From: an uncultured Pirellulaceae bacterium
GTDB lineage: Bacteria > Planctomycetota > Planctomycetia > Pirellulales > Pirellulaceae
Assembly: GCA_964433035.1 (NCBI GenBank)
Contig: CAYSQZ010000003.1
Location: forward strand, 579 to 64,578
Direction: 5' to 3'
Length of the DNA: 64,000 nt
Positions 23,712-31,705 of the stretch are shown piece by piece. Position 1 is the stretch's first letter, and every line of letters begins with the position of its first letter. Both the position numbers and the translations under genes were made by a program. The notes under the pieces are model-generated. The model searched no databases, was not told where the DNA came from, and worked only from the letters and a program-made list of their open reading frames with translations.

Positions 23712-24797
23712 ATGAGTGACTATCTGAACCGAATCGAAGAAGAATGGCGCGAGCGTGCTGATGAGCTTGGTCGTTGGGCAATGGAGCGCTTGGTCAATCG
23801 GACTGATATTTGGGGAAGATATTTGGCTCCCAAGTATCGAGGTGAAGATCAGAAGAACAAAGCGATCACTGCCCCATTTAAACAGGAACGTGGCAAGATC
23901 TTTCTTCAGGAATCGTCGCTGGTCAAGCATTTCAAGTCCAGGCCTGGAGGGGGGATTCTTGGACTTCATAGCGCATCAAGTGACGGTACGTCACGATGGT
24001 TTGCGATCGACATCGATTTGCATGATGACGATGATCTGTCGGTGACTAAAGAAAGCAACTACGTCGCCGCGGTGGCATGGCGGAAGCAGTTGGTCGAAAT
24101 GGGATTTGATCCACTGCTGACCGATTCCAATGGAAAAGGCGGTTTCCACTTGATGGTCGTTTTTCAAAGACCGATGGCAACCAAGTCAGTATTCCATTTC
24201 GTTGAGCGGTTGATTTCAAATTATCAGAAGCTGGGTTTGGATCGAGAGCCCGATGTATTCCCTAGCTCGGCAACCAGTCATCAAGGCGGTTGGCTCCGTC
24301 TGCCGGGCCGCCATCATACCAAGGCGCACTTCACTCGGGTTTGGAACGACGAGCCGTGGGCAGAGGACAAAATCTGGCTGGAGGGGCATGAAGCGATCGA
24401 TCGAATTCTCGATCTTGGGTTGGCCAGTGAGTCGAGTCTTGTTGCGCAGTCAATGAACGTCAAGTCGCGGACCATTTGTCTGGATTTTGATGGTGTGATC
24501 CACTCCAATCAACATGGCTGGCAGGGAGAGGCCGTGATTCCCGATCCTCCGATCCACAAAGTCGATCAAGCGATTGCGGAGTTGCGAAAAGACTACCGAG
24601 TGGTTGTGTTTTCGGCGCGGTGTCGAACCGACGAAGGCGTCGAAGCGATTCGGGCTTGGCTGGTCAAACACAATATCGAAGTTGACGAAGTCTGCCGCGA
24701 CAAGCCCCCGGCACATGTCTACGTAGACGATCGCGCGGTTCGATTCTCGGGTGACTGGCCGCAGACGATTGCAGAGATCCATAATTTTCGCAAGTGA
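23712..24797 (+). CDS. Fusion protein: archaeo-eukaryotic primase (prim-pol) domain + HAD-superfamily phosphatase domain
   Basis: AEP motifs: FAIDIDLHDDDD (DxD), GGFHLMVVF (sxH) and WLRLPGRHH. The C-terminal HAD motifs are ICLDFDGVIH (DxDxV), VVFSAR, RDKPPA and YVDDRA. Confidence 0.65.
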   Translation: MSDYLNRIEEEWRERADELGRWAMERLVNRTDIWGRYLAPKYRGEDQKNKAITAPFKQERGKIFLQESSLVKHFKSRPGGGILGLHSASSDGTSRWFAIDIDLHDDDDLSVTKESNYVAAVAWRKQLVEMGFDPLLTDSNGKGGFHLMVVFQRPMATKSVFHFVERLISNYQKLGLDREPDVFPSSATSHQGGWLRLPGRHHTKAHFTRVWNDEPWAEDKIWLEGHEAIDRILDLGLASESSLVAQSMNVKSRTICLDFDGVIHSNQHGWQGEAVIPDPPIHKVDQAIAELRKDYRVVVFSARCRTDEGVEAIRAWLVKHNIEVDEVCRDKPPAHVYVDDRAVRFSGDWPQTIAEIHNFRK

Positions 24798-27382: not shown

Positions 27383-28552
27383 TCATTTTTGATTGGTTTC
27401 GGATTTTTCTTTGGAGGATTTTGGCTTCGCCTTCTTTTTGGTTTTTGATTCTTTCACTTTTATCGGCAGCTCGGCATTCATGATAGGAGTGTCCCAGCCA
27501 ACCATGTCGAGCGGCTTAACGCCTTCGTAGTAACCCGAATTCATTTGAAATGTCGATGGATTGTAAGGACCAACCATCGCGATGTCGTTGTCGGCTTTAA
27601 TCTCTGCTTCCATGCCCGCTGCCCAGAAGCAAGCGTTGATGAGCATCCGACGAAAGCCATCGTCGCGAATATCTTCCGACGCTCCTGAGGTCGTATTGAA
27701 TACTCGGCCAGTGGCACCGTCCTTACCTGAGTAGGTTCGAACCCAGGAATTTGGACAAGGCTTTTTGTCAGTTACCGGTTCAGAACCTTTTTTCATTGAT
27801 ACCAACGGTTGAGTCATCGCCAAGACAGTACTGCCGGGCATCGGATCGGTCCAATAGCCGCCGCACTCGGCCCACGGGCTTTCAACACCCGTCATGATCG
27901 GATGACTTTTTTGCGACTCAACGATATCCAGCCTCGTACTCATCTTGTGGTTGGTACCATAATGCGAGACCCATGTTTCCCCTAGAACCTGCCGACCGAA
28001 TCCGCCTTTAAAATCAGCGTCAGGAAATCGAAAGTCATATTTTGCGAACTTTGAATCCTTGGGGATTCTAAATGCGTGCGTCGAAGTACGAAGTCCAACA
28101 ACCGGTCCGGCCCGATCAAGGTAGTCGACGATCGGTTGCATTTGGTCGTCAGGAAAGTTCTGAAATCTCAGAAAAACAACAGCTAGGTCGGCATCCTTAA
28201 GCACCTCGGTGCCCGGCATGTAACTGGACCCAGGCAAAATCTCTCCAGTTTCCTTGTCGATTGAGAACAGCACGGTGCATTTGAATCCGTGATGCTTGGC
28301 CAGAATGCGAGCCAACATCGGCAGTGTTTGCTCACCACGATATTCATGGTCCCCTGCCAGAAAGACAATGTGTTTTCCTTTGCCGACGCCCTGAGTGCCC
28401 TCATAGACTAAATGCTCGCTCGAAACGGTTTGCGAATTCGCTGTTGGAGTTGCCGCGAAAAGAAAGCCAATGGCCAAAATCGCAGTGAACACGAAACAGT
28501 GGAGATACTTCATTTGATTTGTCCGGTAGAAAAAAGTGGCTGCAGAGATCAA
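27383..28552 (-). CDS. Secreted ThuA-like (class I glutamine-amidotransferase-fold) protein
   Basis: Signal peptide, HIVFLAGDHEYRGEQTLPMLARIL and LRFQNF...TSTHAF blocks resembling ThuA-domain proteins, and a Lys-rich tail. Confidence 0.5.
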   Translation of the reverse strand: MISAATFFYRTNQMKYLHCFVFTAILAIGFLFAATPTANSQTVSSEHLVYEGTQGVGKGKHIVFLAGDHEYRGEQTLPMLARILAKHHGFKCTVLFSIDKETGEILPGSSYMPGTEVLKDADLAVVFLRFQNFPDDQMQPIVDYLDRAGPVVGLRTSTHAFRIPKDSKFAKYDFRFPDADFKGGFGRQVLGETWVSHYGTNHKMSTRLDIVESQKSHPIMTGVESPWAECGGYWTDPMPGSTVLAMTQPLVSMKKGSEPVTDKKPCPNSWVRTYSGKDGATGRVFNTTSGASEDIRDDGFRRMLINACFWAAGMEAEIKADNDIAMVGPYNPSTFQMNSGYYEGVKPLDMVGWDTPIMNAELPIKVKESKTKKKAKPKSSKEKSETNQK

Positions 28553-28918
28553 CGCTGAAACGTTGGTGAAAGCGAAAGCAGGTCGCCATGTCTCTCAGTA
28601 AGATGATTGAACCCCAAATTTAATTAGATTTCAAATGCGAAACCAAAGAAAAATGGATCGACGCTGGAAGAAGGTGACAAATTGAGCGGAAGATAGTTAA
28701 AAAGTCAAAGTTGTCATTGATCCAAATCTTTCAAATTAGAGGGATCCAGAACCTAAGCCCTAATTTTTAAGAAGGTTGAGGTTTGGGGCTTGAGCGAGGC
28801 AGTCATTCCTCTTTCCAGTCGTAGGGTTGGCCGCGGTTCCGCAGAAGAATGTTCGTCGAATTTTTGTGAACCTGCCGCCTCAGTACCTGTCCTTATCCCC
28901 AACACGGGGCAAGCTTGC

Positions 28919-29036
28919 TCGCCCTTGCAAGTCGCGGGACGTTACGGCGCAGTTCAGATCGGCGCTATACCCAGCGTCACCAACTTTAAAGGTGATTGTT
29001 TACTGTCCGAGTTTTTCCCGCGACTTGCAGGGGCGA
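28919..29036 (+). repeat. 21-bp inverted repeat enclosing 76 nt (candidate structured RNA or DNA palindrome)
   Basis: 28919-28939 pairs with 29016-29036 with 20 Watson-Crick pairs and 1 G-U, verified base by base. The interior contains a TCACC/GGTGA hairpin. It lies in a roughly 700-bp divergent intergenic region. Confidence 0.9.
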
Positions 29037-29108
29037 AGCCAAGTTGCGTAAGCGGCCAACGGCTTGCCTTGGTCAAACCCGAAAACGAAACAAGACAGGA
29101 CTCGATGT

Positions 29109-29182
29109 CGTTCAGTAGCTCAGTTGGTTAGAGCATCAGATTGAAACTCTGACGGTCGCGGATTCGAATTCCGCCAAATTCA
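29109..29182 (+). tRNA. tRNA-Phe(GAA)-like element with canonical D, anticodon, variable and T arms but a non-pairing acceptor stem
   Basis: Canonical parts:
- D stem GCTC/GAGC with loop AGTTGGTTA
- anticodon stem TCAGA/TCTGA with loop TTGAAAC
- variable loop CGGTC
- T stem GCGGA/TCCGC with loop TTCGAAT
The would-be acceptor strands CGTTCAG / CAAATTC give only 2 Watson-Crick pairs and 1 G-U out of 7. Confidence 0.55.
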
Positions 29183-29247
29183 CGATCTCATTTTTCCTGT
29201 CACTTTTTCGTAGTCTTTCGCTCCGCCAAAGATGCGCTCGTGCAAAC

Positions 29248-30756
29248 ATGTCTTTCGAAGTTCAAAGGGAGCTACCAGTGACACAAACCATTTCAAACAA
29301 CCGACTGCTCGAATACCTGGCAACCGCTTGCACCAGCACGGGGCAGGCAACGTTCTACAATTCGCGAGAAGAACAGTCTGGGGCACTGGCTGAACTTCAC
29401 GCTGGCGTATTAAATGTTGACCGTCGCGCGTACACGCTCTCGGCCGCTTTGCCGATCAACGACCGTAACCGACAGGAGATCGTTTACAACTTGATCGCTC
29501 AAGGCGTCGCGACCGAGGATCGAGAGCTGGAAAACCAGGCGATCGAATATGTTATTCGCGAGCTGCCTTTTAGTCGTTGGTTAAAACTTTTGGTACGTTT
29601 GAGTCGTAACAAAGTCAACAACGCTCGCTTGCGGCGCATTTGCCGGGAGTTCTGGAACAAGTACGGTGACGCGTACCACGCGATCAAGTACCGAGCGAAG
29701 TTTCGAACCGTTTTGCGCCATTGCCACATCGGCGAAGGCGAAGATCCGCATCGGGCTGAGGTTCATCGCTGGATCTTTGGGCGCTTGCGAAATCCTGCAG
29801 ACGTTCAGCACAACCCATTGCTTCGTTCGCGATTGACTGCGGCAGACGACCTGGGAGCTTGCTTTGACCTTCCACTGGAAATCGGTCGCGATATTGCAGT
29901 GGCTTGCCACGGAATGAAGCCGAAAGAGTTCACCGAGCAGTTTGCTGGAAAAAGCGAAACCGAATCGGGCGACGCAATCGTTGCTCGTGGTCGCGCGACC
30001 CGTAAGCAATCTTTGATTGCAAATCGTCAAGCCGGTACTGACGTTGACTTTAAGCGGTTCGAATTGATCGAATTGCTTCAGCATGGTTACCGGGTGCGAG
30101 ACGACCAGGAAAGCCCGGAAGCGTTCGCCAAGATCCGTGACGAGTTGTACGCCGCAATCGATTTGCAGGCAAAGCGATTGGCTCGCAACTTGCAACTGCC
30201 TGACAATGTACACGCAATCGTTGACAACAGCGGTAGTGCACGTGGCAGCGACGAGCGAGCTTATCACGCGTTAGCTGTGATCGAAGCGACGTTCCGTGTC
30301 ATCGGAGCTGCGTCCGAAAAGTTGGGTACGTCGTTGACGTGCCACTTTGTTGGTGACGCAGGCGAAGGCAACACGTTGCTCAGTCCAGCCGGAGGTACCG
30401 ACTTGCGGCGACCGCTGGCCCGTGCCTTGGCGGCTCGGCCTGACATGGTAGTCATTCTGTCGGACGGCTACGAGAACGTATCGGCTGGTAGCGTTGCCCA
30501 AATTCTGGCGACCCGCGCGGTGCGGGAAAGCGGGATTGGCGTCGTTCATTTGAACCCGGTCGCTGCGGCTGAAGCTGGCGGTACGCGCCGATTGGCCGAG
30601 AACCTGCCAACCTACGGCTTGGCTGATCCAAAGCAACTGTCGATTTCGTTGTTGCTGGGTGAAGCCACGACCGACACACGTCGATTGTTTGCTTTGTTTG
30701 ATCGAATTGAAATTGCTTTAAAAGGAGACCACGATGAAATTGCACGAATTGTTTAG
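29248..30756 (+). CDS. Divergent TROVE-domain + vWA-domain protein (Ro60/Rsr-like)
   Basis: Three N-terminal blocks resemble Ro60/Rsr sequences:
- RLLEYLATACTSTGQATFYNSREEQ, compared with Ro60/Rsr RFLxLGxEGGTYY
- ARLRRICREFWNKYGDAY
- YHAIKYRAKFRTVLRHCH, compared with AVKYxQRxGWSHRDLLRLxHP
The C-terminal vWA region has the MIDAS motif IVDNSGSA (DxSxS) and VVILSDGYEN. Confidence 0.6.
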   Translation: MSFEVQRELPVTQTISNNRLLEYLATACTSTGQATFYNSREEQSGALAELHAGVLNVDRRAYTLSAALPINDRNRQEIVYNLIAQGVATEDRELENQAIEYVIRELPFSRWLKLLVRLSRNKVNNARLRRICREFWNKYGDAYHAIKYRAKFRTVLRHCHIGEGEDPHRAEVHRWIFGRLRNPADVQHNPLLRSRLTAADDLGACFDLPLEIGRDIAVACHGMKPKEFTEQFAGKSETESGDAIVARGRATRKQSLIANRQAGTDVDFKRFELIELLQHGYRVRDDQESPEAFAKIRDELYAAIDLQAKRLARNLQLPDNVHAIVDNSGSARGSDERAYHALAVIEATFRVIGAASEKLGTSLTCHFVGDAGEGNTLLSPAGGTDLRRPLARALAARPDMVVILSDGYENVSAGSVAQILATRAVRESGIGVVHLNPVAAAEAGGTRRLAENLPTYGLADPKQLSISLLLGEATTDTRRLFALFDRIEIALKGDHDEIARIV

Positions 30757-31705
30757 CGAGCTGATGATTGGTCAGCCGCAAACGGTCGGTAACATGACCG
30801 TGATCCCGTTGAGCAATCGTTCCAATGCAGAGCCTCAGTCGCGTGCCAATGTTGGTTCAAGTCGAGATCTGTTTCTGGAGCGTGACGAGAGCTACAACTC
30901 GCTGGTGTTGGGTACGCATGCCGACTATGTCACGATCGTACCGCAAGGTATGGCCTTGATTACTCGGCAGCGAGCCCAGGACCGTGCGATTCCCAGCACG
31001 CACCTGGTACATACGACTCCAAAGAAAGTCGGCGCGTTTTGTATTCAATCGAGCCAATGTGGTCTGATGAGTAAAGATCGCAGCTCAGAACACAAACTGC
31101 GGATGCTGCCGTTGGCAGTTCGTTACGAAGCGTATTTGCGTCGCAATGAGTCGGCTGAGTCGTTCAGCTCGCTGTGGCAAAAGCTGGGACAATGGAATCA
31201 CCGATCTGGCGTTAACGGTGACTTCCTGGTCAGCTTTTTCCAGCAGTACGCTCGGAACCTCAGCCAATTTGTGGCCCAGTTCGAGCTTACGCCTCAGCAG
31301 CGCGGTGCGATCGTTCTGATCAACGGTCGACTGGCAGGTGTCGAAGTGGCGCCTAACAGCGAATACTTTGCTGGCCTTTTTCAACCGCTAATTCGTGACT
31401 GTTACGGTGCCGAAGCGATGTTGGCGCGTGGCGAAGCGACGCCTAAGGCGAGTGAGCTATTGTCAGACGTGAATTCGCTTGATGATCTGGTCGCCGCTGT
31501 CGACGAGTTGGCTGAGACCGAGAACCGGTTTGCAGCCGATGTTGCGCAGGAAGTTCAGACGTTGGCGATGCAGTCCAGCGATGACCACGCGTTGGCGGGT
31601 TTGAAAGTCGTCAACATGGACGGGGCTTCGCTCGCTGGTCAGGGTGTTTATTCGGATCAGGCTCGGGGCTTGGTCTACGCCTCGTTGATGGCCCGTCCAG
31701 CGTAG
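30734..31705 (+). CDS. Unknown protein translationally coupled to the TROVE/vWA gene (possibly DUF6569/ARPP-1-like)
   Basis: Its ATG overlaps the upstream CDS by 23 nt and is preceded by AAAGGAGA. The N-terminal GNMTVIPL, RAQDRAIP and AFCIQSSQCG blocks resemble my memory of that DUF. This is unverified. Confidence 0.55.
   Translation: MKLHELFSELMIGQPQTVGNMTVIPLSNRSNAEPQSRANVGSSRDLFLERDESYNSLVLGTHADYVTIVPQGMALITRQRAQDRAIPSTHLVHTTPKKVGAFCIQSSQCGLMSKDRSSEHKLRMLPLAVRYEAYLRRNESAESFSSLWQKLGQWNHRSGVNGDFLVSFFQQYARNLSQFVAQFELTPQQRGAIVLINGRLAGVEVAPNSEYFAGLFQPLIRDCYGAEAMLARGEATPKASELLSDVNSLDDLVAAVDELAETENRFAADVAQEVQTLAMQSSDDHALAGLKVVNMDGASLAGQGVYSDQARGLVYASLMARPA

Follow-up and report, generated by a model that had tools for sequence, protein, structure and literature searches.

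We analyzed a 64,000-nt stretch of DNA, called the window here, from an uncultured Pirellulaceae bacterium (assembly GCA_964433035.1, contig CAYSQZ010000003.1, positions 579 to 64,578 of the forward strand). On its + strand, this window carries a module of two structured RNAs followed by two protein genes. The RNA of main concern (29091-29208) is a framed tRNA mimic, in which a tRNA-like body lacking a free acceptor end is enclosed by two outer helices, hereafter the frame. It ends 40 nt upstream of a 502-aa open reading frame (ORF; 29248-30756, +) encoding a protein with an alpha-solenoid and a vWA domain. The end of that gene overlaps by 23 nt with a 323-aa ORF (30734-31705, +) for an ARPP-domain protein, and the second structured RNA lies at 28912-29045 (+). 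In the clade of the window, the module sits amid housekeeping genes (RlmKL-like, ThuA, and LeuA), and its neighbors vary from one ortholog to the next, which a self-contained unit would be expected to show.

The tRNA-like body spans 29116-29174 (+). It starts with U8 (29116) and A9 and continues through a D stem (29118-29121 with 29131-29134), an anticodon stem (29136-29140 with 29148-29152) with the loop TTGAAAC (29141-29147; anticodon GAA at 29143-29145), a 5-nt variable loop, CGGTC (29153-29157), and a T stem (29158-29162 with 29170-29174) closed by the T loop TTCGAAT. Other conserved tRNA nucleotides are present as well, including A14, G18G19, and a G15:C48-compatible pair. The Rfam tRNA family RF00005 matched 29115-29175 (+) with 51.9 bits (E 3e-8; gathering score 29), which, together with our reading of the sequence, bears out a first-pass annotation of the window that had placed a tRNA body with a GAA anticodon here. 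That annotation had also noted a missing acceptor stem and the lack of an encoded CCA, and it was correct on both counts. The Rfam alignment covers model positions 7-64 alone (the D, anticodon, variable, and T regions), leaving the acceptor unmatched, and the flanks CGTTCAG and CAAATTC form only 3 of 7 pairs at the acceptor position, close to a calculated chance expectation of ~2.6. The 5' flank includes the linker TCAG, which occupies acceptor positions 4-7, and the 3' linker CAAATTC (29175-29181, +) stands unpaired in the position of the acceptor 3' strand. A search for CCA after the body found none; the sequence there reads CAAATTCACGATC. ARAGORN, one of the tRNA gene finders suggested as a check, called zero tRNA genes across the 64-kb window, missing this body and finding no second tRNA, intact tRNA-Phe included. 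The first pass had further reasoned that a normal acceptor in orthologs would overturn its description. Instead, orthologs are equally unpaired, with 4 of 7 pairs at locus L065 and 3 of 7 at L069, and the acceptor-less state is common to independent metagenome assemblies (L065-L069).

The minimum free energy (MFE) fold of 29070-29230 (RNAfold) contained every one of the four outer pairings that had been proposed around the body. However, its stability was not unusual (z = -1.37), and our case for the element therefore rests on comparison with relatives. We collected 76 further loci via the vWA protein and mapped them by ARAGORN, nhmmer, and tblastn. A common design became visible when gene-proximal copies with poor acceptors were compared together with their flanks. 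From the 5' end, helix 1 finishes with the motif GGAC and is separated by an internal loop from helix 2, which is followed by a (T)ACAG linker and an acceptor stub of 0-4 bp; after the stub come the tRNA body, a 3' linker, the second strand of helix 2, (T)TCC with the second strand of helix 1, and a T-rich tail. We built a covariance model of this design, R2, from six cleanly aligned members in which every pair had been verified beforehand. R2 matched window positions 29091-29208 over its full length (model positions 1-133) with 51.6 bits (E ~7e-10 over 0.5 Mb; E 9e-13 in a local search with filters off), making this a complete mimic of the non-permuted type, type A, with the frame at the acceptor position. 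R2 found ~45 full-length matches in all, among them the window element, those of the L065 and L069 orthologs, and one in an uncultured phage of 462 kb. With ordinary tRNAs, by contrast, the match was confined to the body (model positions 30-93).

Pairing in the family is maintained through sequence change. Across 39 distinct sequences, 94.3% of cells formed a standard pair, compared to 65.8% in shuffles. The covariation score was 0.711, compared to 0.184 in shuffles, none of which reached the observed value in 500 trials, and to 0.08-0.13 in slid registers. Changes on both sides were seen in each of the 15 pairs of the two outer helices (8/8 in helix 1 and 7/7 in helix 2, the latter with 95% of cells paired).

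In the window, helix 1 joins GACAGGA (29094-29100), which is identical in L065 and L069, to TCCTGTC (29195-29201), which is preceded by a conserved T-rich/TCC context. Helix 2 joins GATGTCGT (29104-29111, or GAT(GT)CGT) to ACGATCT (29182-29188). The motif GGAC lies at 29098-29101 (G[GA]AC in 35 of 40 family members), and the window's form of the (T)ACAG motif, TCAG, at 29112-29115, directly 5' of U8; ACAG or TCAG stands before the body in 38 of 40 members. A T-run follows helix 1 at 29204-29208. It corresponds to the T-rich tail of most members, which the model includes, and was not called by a simple terminator scan. At L069, the 3' strand of helix 2 reads ACGGTT, and these two changes (A to G and C to T) keep the pairing as U.G and G.U wobbles, so that it is valid for RNA of the + strand only.

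The closest loci are L065-L068, whose protein is 76% identical to that of the window, and L069 (71%). Conservation with L065 and L069 starts sharply at CAAGACAGGA (29091) and stops at the T-run (29208), and upstream of ~29091, the ortholog sequences diverge completely. This divided the four outer pairings of the first pass. The inner two, helices 1 and 2, are kept in orthologs and covary family-wide. The outermost two (29080-29093 with 29204-29220) appear in the MFE fold but are not conserved, their 3' partner being a mere T-run.

The anticodon loop behaves differently from the rest of the body. In the same body (98% identity between the window and L065, and 84% between the window and L069), the loop reads TTGAAAC (GAA) in the window, TCCTTAC (CTT) at L065, and CTCATAA (CAT) at L069. 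These other anticodons at the orthologous position speak indirectly against the element being the tRNA-Phe(GAA) of its genome. Between the window and L065, 4 of 7 loop positions differ, compared to 2 of 111 elsewhere (Fisher p = 6.6e-5), while the neighboring coding sequence is 72% identical. Across the family, 35 seven-nt loops contain 24 distinct anticodons, and entropy is ~1.87 bits at each of positions 34-36, compared to means of 0.43 bits for the nearly invariant D arm and 0.73 bits for the T arm. U33 was nonetheless retained in 29/35 loops and R37 in 34/35. Because the stems covary and these two positions are retained, the loop must resemble that of a tRNA anticodon, while its identity is free or diversifying.

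The RNA is associated with the gene pair. In 29 of the 50 loci that have at least 600 nt of upstream sequence, a full-length element lies on the gene strand no more than 1.5 kb upstream, usually 40-450 nt from the start; at L069, it ends ~15 nt before the start codon. The vWA and ARPP genes are a fixed, co-oriented pair, with ARPP directly downstream in essentially every locus with sufficient sequence. Searching from the RNA side gave the same association. The signature GGAC-N11-TACAG...TAGCTCA...GGTTC had six matches in 2.9 million viral contigs, five of them with vWA and ARPP downstream, on IMG/VR viral genomes of up to 350 kb. The sixth (L080) lies inside an ORF and was discarded as a chance match. 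Typically, the gene-proximal copy has an acceptor stub of 0-4 bp. Framed elements also form tandem arrays of 2-5 with differing bodies and anticodons, and copies occur downstream of ARPP at L018 (8007-8139) and L035 (6618-6765). A second framed element at L002 (5765-5888; 44.9 bits) has a 7-bp hairpin with a 5-nt loop in place of the T arm and an anticodon loop of 8 nt, so the frame can stay constant while the body degenerates.

The surroundings of the gene pair are highly enriched in tRNA genes, with 117 distinct ARAGORN calls in ~0.5 Mb. In the 64 loci tabulated by strand, all calls except one were on the gene strand. Normal acceptors (6-7 of 7 pairs) were found in 104 of the 117, and the poor ones were mostly the gene-nearest copies. 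Relatives are located in tRNA arrays on viral contigs of up to 350-462 kb. Many calls near the pair have A34 anticodons (atc, acg, aac, agt, and aca) or 2-nt "anticodons," and these are mostly framed mimics. Individual loci include a tRNA-Asp between the vWA and ARPP genes (L072 4488-4562), two tRNAs with tca anticodons, opal-suppressor-like and called "SeC" (L075 6742-6815 and 7031-7104), a run of nine class II tRNAs (L039 2295-3233), and arrays of 14-21 tRNAs (L060 and L061).

Lower-scoring siblings of 155-161 nt occur in arrays alongside the framed elements. They share this frame, and the order of the body is permuted, running from the T arm through a closed 7-bp acceptor hairpin to UA with the D arm and then the anticodon arm. 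In these type B elements, which are circularly permuted tRNAs, the frame sits where the variable arm would be. The acceptor hairpin has 7/7 pairs in 11/11 siblings, and after un-permutation in silico, ARAGORN called a tRNA in 8 of the 11, one with a stop-reading anticodon (tta). Permuted elements with the GGAC/TACAG frame were located at L027 (2881-3038, 3066-3224, and 3264-3419), L030 (2919-3074), L040 (2689-2843), L043 (3284-3444), L034 (2659-2819), L029 (2341-2498), L062 (2529-2675), and L020 (1200-1338 and 1367-1512). Both topologies share one property, which is that the free acceptor end is missing.

The order of T arm, acceptor loop, and D arm has been described for YrlA (PMC4201824), and the YrlA model RF02553 matched siblings significantly, though below its gathering score of 69, with 32.8 bits (E 4.5e-5 over 1 kb) and with 42.4 bits (E 4.4e-6 over 56 kb; 1.9e-8 over 241 nt). 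The latter score belongs to an array member at L040 (3083-3198) that aligns to the whole YrlA model, which makes it the strongest direct tie, by sequence, to known Y RNAs. In the alignment, family helix 2 and AUACAG lie opposite the terminal helix and AUGC loop of YrlA. Window positions 28500-29700 matched none of the Y RNA families of Rfam, even at E <= 10.

The gene for the vWA protein is annotated from an ATG at 29248 that lacks a Shine-Dalgarno sequence. The true start is probably GTG 29278, in the same frame, because AAAGGGAG precedes it and because the resulting 492 aa equal the length of the closest ortholog (P0002). The family comprises 657 representative clusters at 50% identity. An AlphaFold2 model of the protein (predicted local distance difference test score 88; predicted template modeling score 0.84) is helical at 11-312 and forms an alpha/beta domain at 320-460. 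The latter carries a DxSxS metal ion-dependent adhesion site motif, and the residues D326, S328, S330, D406, and G407 do not vary. Ro60 has this domain order too, with helical repeats preceding vWA. Comparison by hhalign of a deep profile (A9; 45 sequences) with a Ro60 profile gave 93.4% probability and E 2.5e-7 over Ro60 residues 303-530, where the Ro60 profile consisted of vertebrate sequences alone (the best 120 homologues listed). Foldseek against BFVD returned full-length matches (probability 1.00; TM-score 0.4-0.5) to viral TROVE, vWFA, and DUF2828 proteins, including a "TROVE domain-containing protein" of a crAss-like phage (full length; TM-score 0.47). In Pfam, the vWA family had sub-threshold matches to VWA_CoxE and VWA_2 alone, and phmmer and profile searches of PDB sequences gave no Ro60 match. 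In one viral clade (L029 3644-5773, L034 2885-5167, L020, L027, L030, L040, and L043), proteins of this family reach 706-760 aa through N- and C-terminal extensions that have no Pfam matches.

The product of 30734-31705 matched Pfam ARPP-1 with 93.5 bits (cut-off 27; E 2e-26; the ARPP-1 and ARPP-2 families are PF20208 and PF22549). The motifs AQD, AFCxQSSQxG, and RDCYG are invariant, as are C103, Q105, Q108, and C223 across 10 orthologs. Such invariant Cys and Gln motifs are what is expected of an enzyme. ARPP has been predicted to be a conflict-system enzyme with conserved Cys and Gln; other gene contexts are given there, and a vWA or framed-RNA context is not (PMC9503650).

The second structured RNA (28912-29045) is very stable, with -70.6 kcal/mol by RNAfold (z = -7.0), and has two hairpins that are closed by a helix of ~28 bp. 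L065 and L069 conserve it, with compensatory changes and with wobble changes valid for the + strand only. It contains frame-like motifs (GCGGGAC, GTTCAG, and TTTCCCGC) and a hairpin resembling an anticodon arm (CACCA-ACTTTAA-AGGTG in the window and CACCA-ATGAAGA-TGGTG at L065). R2 aligned its helix 1/GGAC/UUUCC part alone, at a non-significant 2.1 bits, which does not support it as a formal member of the framed-mimic family, though it may represent a reduced form of this RNA class.

A conserved GTGAACCT block (28866-28873) lies ~45 nt 5' of this RNA. At L065 and L069 it follows TTGAC(A/T)G, which the window lacks at this place. The block may be a promoter for the unit of two RNAs, vWA, and ARPP. 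A sigma-70 scan found nothing at 28866-28873, and simple promoter and terminator scanning of the locus was uninformative. A 113-aa ORF that overlaps both RNAs (28790-29131, +) is almost certainly spurious. Farther upstream, a 361-aa ORF (23712-24797, +) gave weak matches to two domains, the AEP primase of the "TOTE conflict system" and a HAD/polynucleotide kinase (PNK)-phosphatase-like domain (PHROG 23773 at 9e-20, and polynucleotide-kinase PHROGs). It lies 4.4 kb upstream of the module, with two opposite-strand genes (RlmKL-like and ThuA) in between.

We estimate a probability of roughly 55% that the window element is a Y-RNA-like, tRNA-mimicking RNA of a ribonucleoprotein, acting with the remotely Ro60-like protein and the ARPP enzyme. 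On this reading, the locus would encode two structured RNAs ahead of a two-gene operon for the Ro60-like protein and the ARPP enzyme, and cleavage of the operon transcript would release the RNA. Its invariant frame could then serve as a handle bound by the Ro60-like protein, which would display the L-shaped body to factors that recognize tRNAs. Because the free acceptor end is missing, the mimic could not be aminoacylated. Because the anticodon bases are nearly free within a tRNA geometry (7 nt, U33, and R37), we propose that the anticodon is the specificity determinant. The most likely role would be that of a decoy, bait, or adaptor for enzymes of the anticodon loop, such as anticodon nucleases or toxins that modify it, and ARPP would be the partner that supplies catalysis. 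Huge phages, with their copies in tRNA-gene arrays, and planctomycete chromosomes would both be users of such a system. A broader version, to which we give distinctly less credence and which we offer only tentatively, is that all these parts belong to a tRNA-centered conflict system, not recognized before, that huge phages and planctomycetes have in common. In it, a Ro60-like scaffold would present permuted and non-permuted mimics in one conserved frame, their freely evolving anticodon loops would be decoys or baits for anticodon nucleases or tRNA-modifying toxins, ARPP would process captured or damaged RNA, and the anticodon would be programmable.

Several observations weigh against this interpretation. 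The motif GNCGAAN0-1G (CGAA) is absent from 29091-29208 and occurs in only 4 of 40 family members, at scattered positions. No framed element was detected in 21 of the 50 loci, even with filters off, indicating either that the RNA is not obligatory or that the model misses divergent copies. The anticodon swap in close orthologs is based on three loci. The alignment behind the covariation statistics was fitted to the R2 model itself, and for this reason, we added an alignment-free control, in which the 5' and 3' frame halves of an element hybridized at a mean of -18.8 kcal/mol, compared to -9.4 when unrelated halves were crossed (p = 1.2e-20); none of 36 unrelated partners suited the window element as well as its own. 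On the protein side, Pfam TROVE (PF05731) and vWA_Ro60 (PF25045) matched none of the 54 family proteins scanned, with no match in the window protein, 44 close members, or 10 distant ones, while both domains were found in genuine Ro60 proteins. The A9 match is limited to the last TROVE helices and the vWA domain. With a shallow profile (A1), hhalign gave <1% against human Ro60 and the vertebrate profile, and Ro60 was not in the top 50 of a Foldseek search of PDB. Searches of PHROGs, PADLOC, and NCBIfam returned nothing for either protein. Given positive results from A9 and the viral models and negative results from the other Ro60 tests, we therefore chose the label "remotely Ro60-like" for a protein that, by its sequence and predicted structure, is not a demonstrated Ro60.

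The first-pass annotation had proposed a Y-RNA-type tRNA mimic, and this holds in kind, given a covarying family, a Ro60-like neighbor, and siblings with the topology of YrlA. Membership in the known Y RNA and Ro60 families is not established for the element and its partner, as the element is non-permuted, has neither a match to an Rfam Y RNA nor the GNCGAAN0-1G motif, and adjoins a protein in which TROVE is not recognized and for which Foldseek against PDB did not return Ro60.

Other explanations must account for the same observations. The framed elements could be part of a cis-acting 5' leader without function in trans, such as an entry signal for RNase P or RNase E, an attenuator, or an autoregulatory operator. 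The element ends only 40 nt (window) or ~15 nt (L069) before the start codon and ribosome-binding site, and this gap is too short for a separate promoter, so the element is co-transcribed with the genes. The T-run after the closing helix would also suit a leader, and tRNA-like operators are an established mechanism, as in the thrS leader. However, it is not evident why an operator or attenuator would need a complete tRNA elbow or so variable an anticodon, and no terminator was called in the simple scan. Copies downstream of ARPP, and tandem arrays in which 2-5 elements differ in body and anticodon, are also hard to reconcile with a leader, and we regard this explanation as unlikely. We give slightly less weight still to the idea that the elements are unusual tRNA precursors, with the frame an excised leader-trailer duplex and the vWA and ARPP proteins as processing factors. 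Permuted copies would then be ligated and opened at the acceptor loop, as in Cyanidioschyzon, and the resulting tRNAs would supplement the phage arrays. ARAGORN and Rfam do call tRNAs in some distal type A copies, which have 6-7 acceptor pairs within the frame, type B copies become full cloverleafs once un-permuted, and the elements lie amid genuine same-strand tRNA arrays and have canonical anticodon loops. Yet the window and its orthologs have only 3-4 of 7 acceptor pairs, at chance level, and no CCA, so a chargeable tRNA is impossible from the window element. Acceptor stubs of the gene-proximal copy are typically 0-4 bp long, and the frame does not form a bulge-helix-bulge (BHB) motif. No splicing endonuclease or ligase gene is conserved beside the pair, and different anticodons at one locus in close genomes would be odd for a needed tRNA.

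The alternative raised in the first pass, a decayed tRNA, was rejected in view of the conserved, covarying family. As a tRNA-Phe pseudogene, a remnant of an integration site, or an assembly or strain-specific lesion, the element would be expected to lack its acceptor stem and to escape ARAGORN, as it does, and an intact tRNA-Phe is not present in the window. Decay does not fit a body that is 98% identical to the L065 ortholog next to a coding sequence that is 72% identical, nor an acceptor-less state shared by independent assemblies (L065-L069), nor outer helices that covary across 39 sequences. Remnants of attachment (att) sites duplicate the 3' end of a tRNA, not a complete D, anticodon, and T body. 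We consider this explanation extremely improbable.

Should the Y-RNA-like reading hold, the principle of Ro60 and Y RNA would reach a divergent protein family that domain databases do not know. Blocked-acceptor tRNA mimicry would have been built in two topologies on one protein-binding frame, and the RNA architecture would be new. Rfam 15 has no family for the framed element, and full-text searching of the published literature found no earlier description of the module, although its absence is not thereby proven. The framed tRNA mimics appear to be a functional non-coding RNA class, apparently undescribed, of huge phages and planctomycetes. The orphan ARPP domain would gain an RNA context, and the tRNA arrays of huge phages would be tied to a dedicated ribonucleoprotein. 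A hypervariable yet canonical anticodon loop would offer a testable decoy or bait hypothesis for the arms race around anticodon nucleases. In practical terms, R2 tells framed mimics, which gene finders otherwise miss or mis-annotate as odd tRNAs (such as tRNA-Asp(atc) or tRNA-???), from true tRNAs.

Compared to canonical tRNAs, the window element lacks a 7-bp acceptor stem, a discriminator/CCA context, and an ARAGORN call. Around its body are two covarying outer helices, a feature absent from ordinary tRNAs. Circularly permuted tRNA genes exist, for example, in Cyanidioschyzon merolae. As in the type B siblings, the 3' part of those genes is encoded before the 5' part, and the acceptor ends are joined by a short loop. 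The type B outer ends, however, form a long conserved frame instead of a BHB splice motif, and the window element is not permuted.

A close comparison is with YrlA and its Ro60 protein Rsr (RF02553; PMC4201824). Both systems place a tRNA-like module without a free acceptor end on a long terminal stem, and both encode the RNA, sometimes in several copies, on the same strand beside a gene for an alpha-solenoid and vWA protein. The window element has the long stem formed from the 5' and 3' ends that is typical of Y RNAs, as helices 1 and 2 enclose its body. The type B siblings have the T arm, closed acceptor, and D arm order of YrlA and match its model at E 1e-5 to 1e-8. By contrast, the window element is non-permuted and retains a full anticodon arm, which in YrlA is replaced by the Ro60 stem. 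Matches of the family to YrlA reach at most 42 bits (gathering score 69), with none for the window element, and the family has its own GGAC/TACAG motifs and no GNCGAAN0-1G. The partner protein is not recognized by Pfam TROVE, and the obligate neighbor is ARPP rather than RtcB or RtcA.

Two further systems share particular features with the window. Yrn1 of Deinococcus radiodurans has been modeled with its Ro60-binding stem at the acceptor position and a closed arm resembling an anticodon arm (PMC4201824), a topology like that of the window element, compared here by description only. In Yrn1, the D-loop features are only partial, the "anticodon" loop has 6 nt, and a variable arm is missing, while the window body is complete and scores in Rfam. 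Thermus phage phiLo likewise encodes two structured RNAs, Yrl1 and Yrl2, directly upstream of a Ro60-type gene (PMC12135203), and these have a stem-bulge-stem closing architecture like that of the family; RNAs upstream of a Ro60-type gene are also the order reported for YrlA (PMC4201824). In phiLo, however, the Ro60 is recognizable, the Yrl RNAs carry CGAA and are not described as tRNA-like, and no ARPP partner is described. A survey of jumbo phages mentions only canonical ROT/TROVE proteins with a tRNA-like partner.

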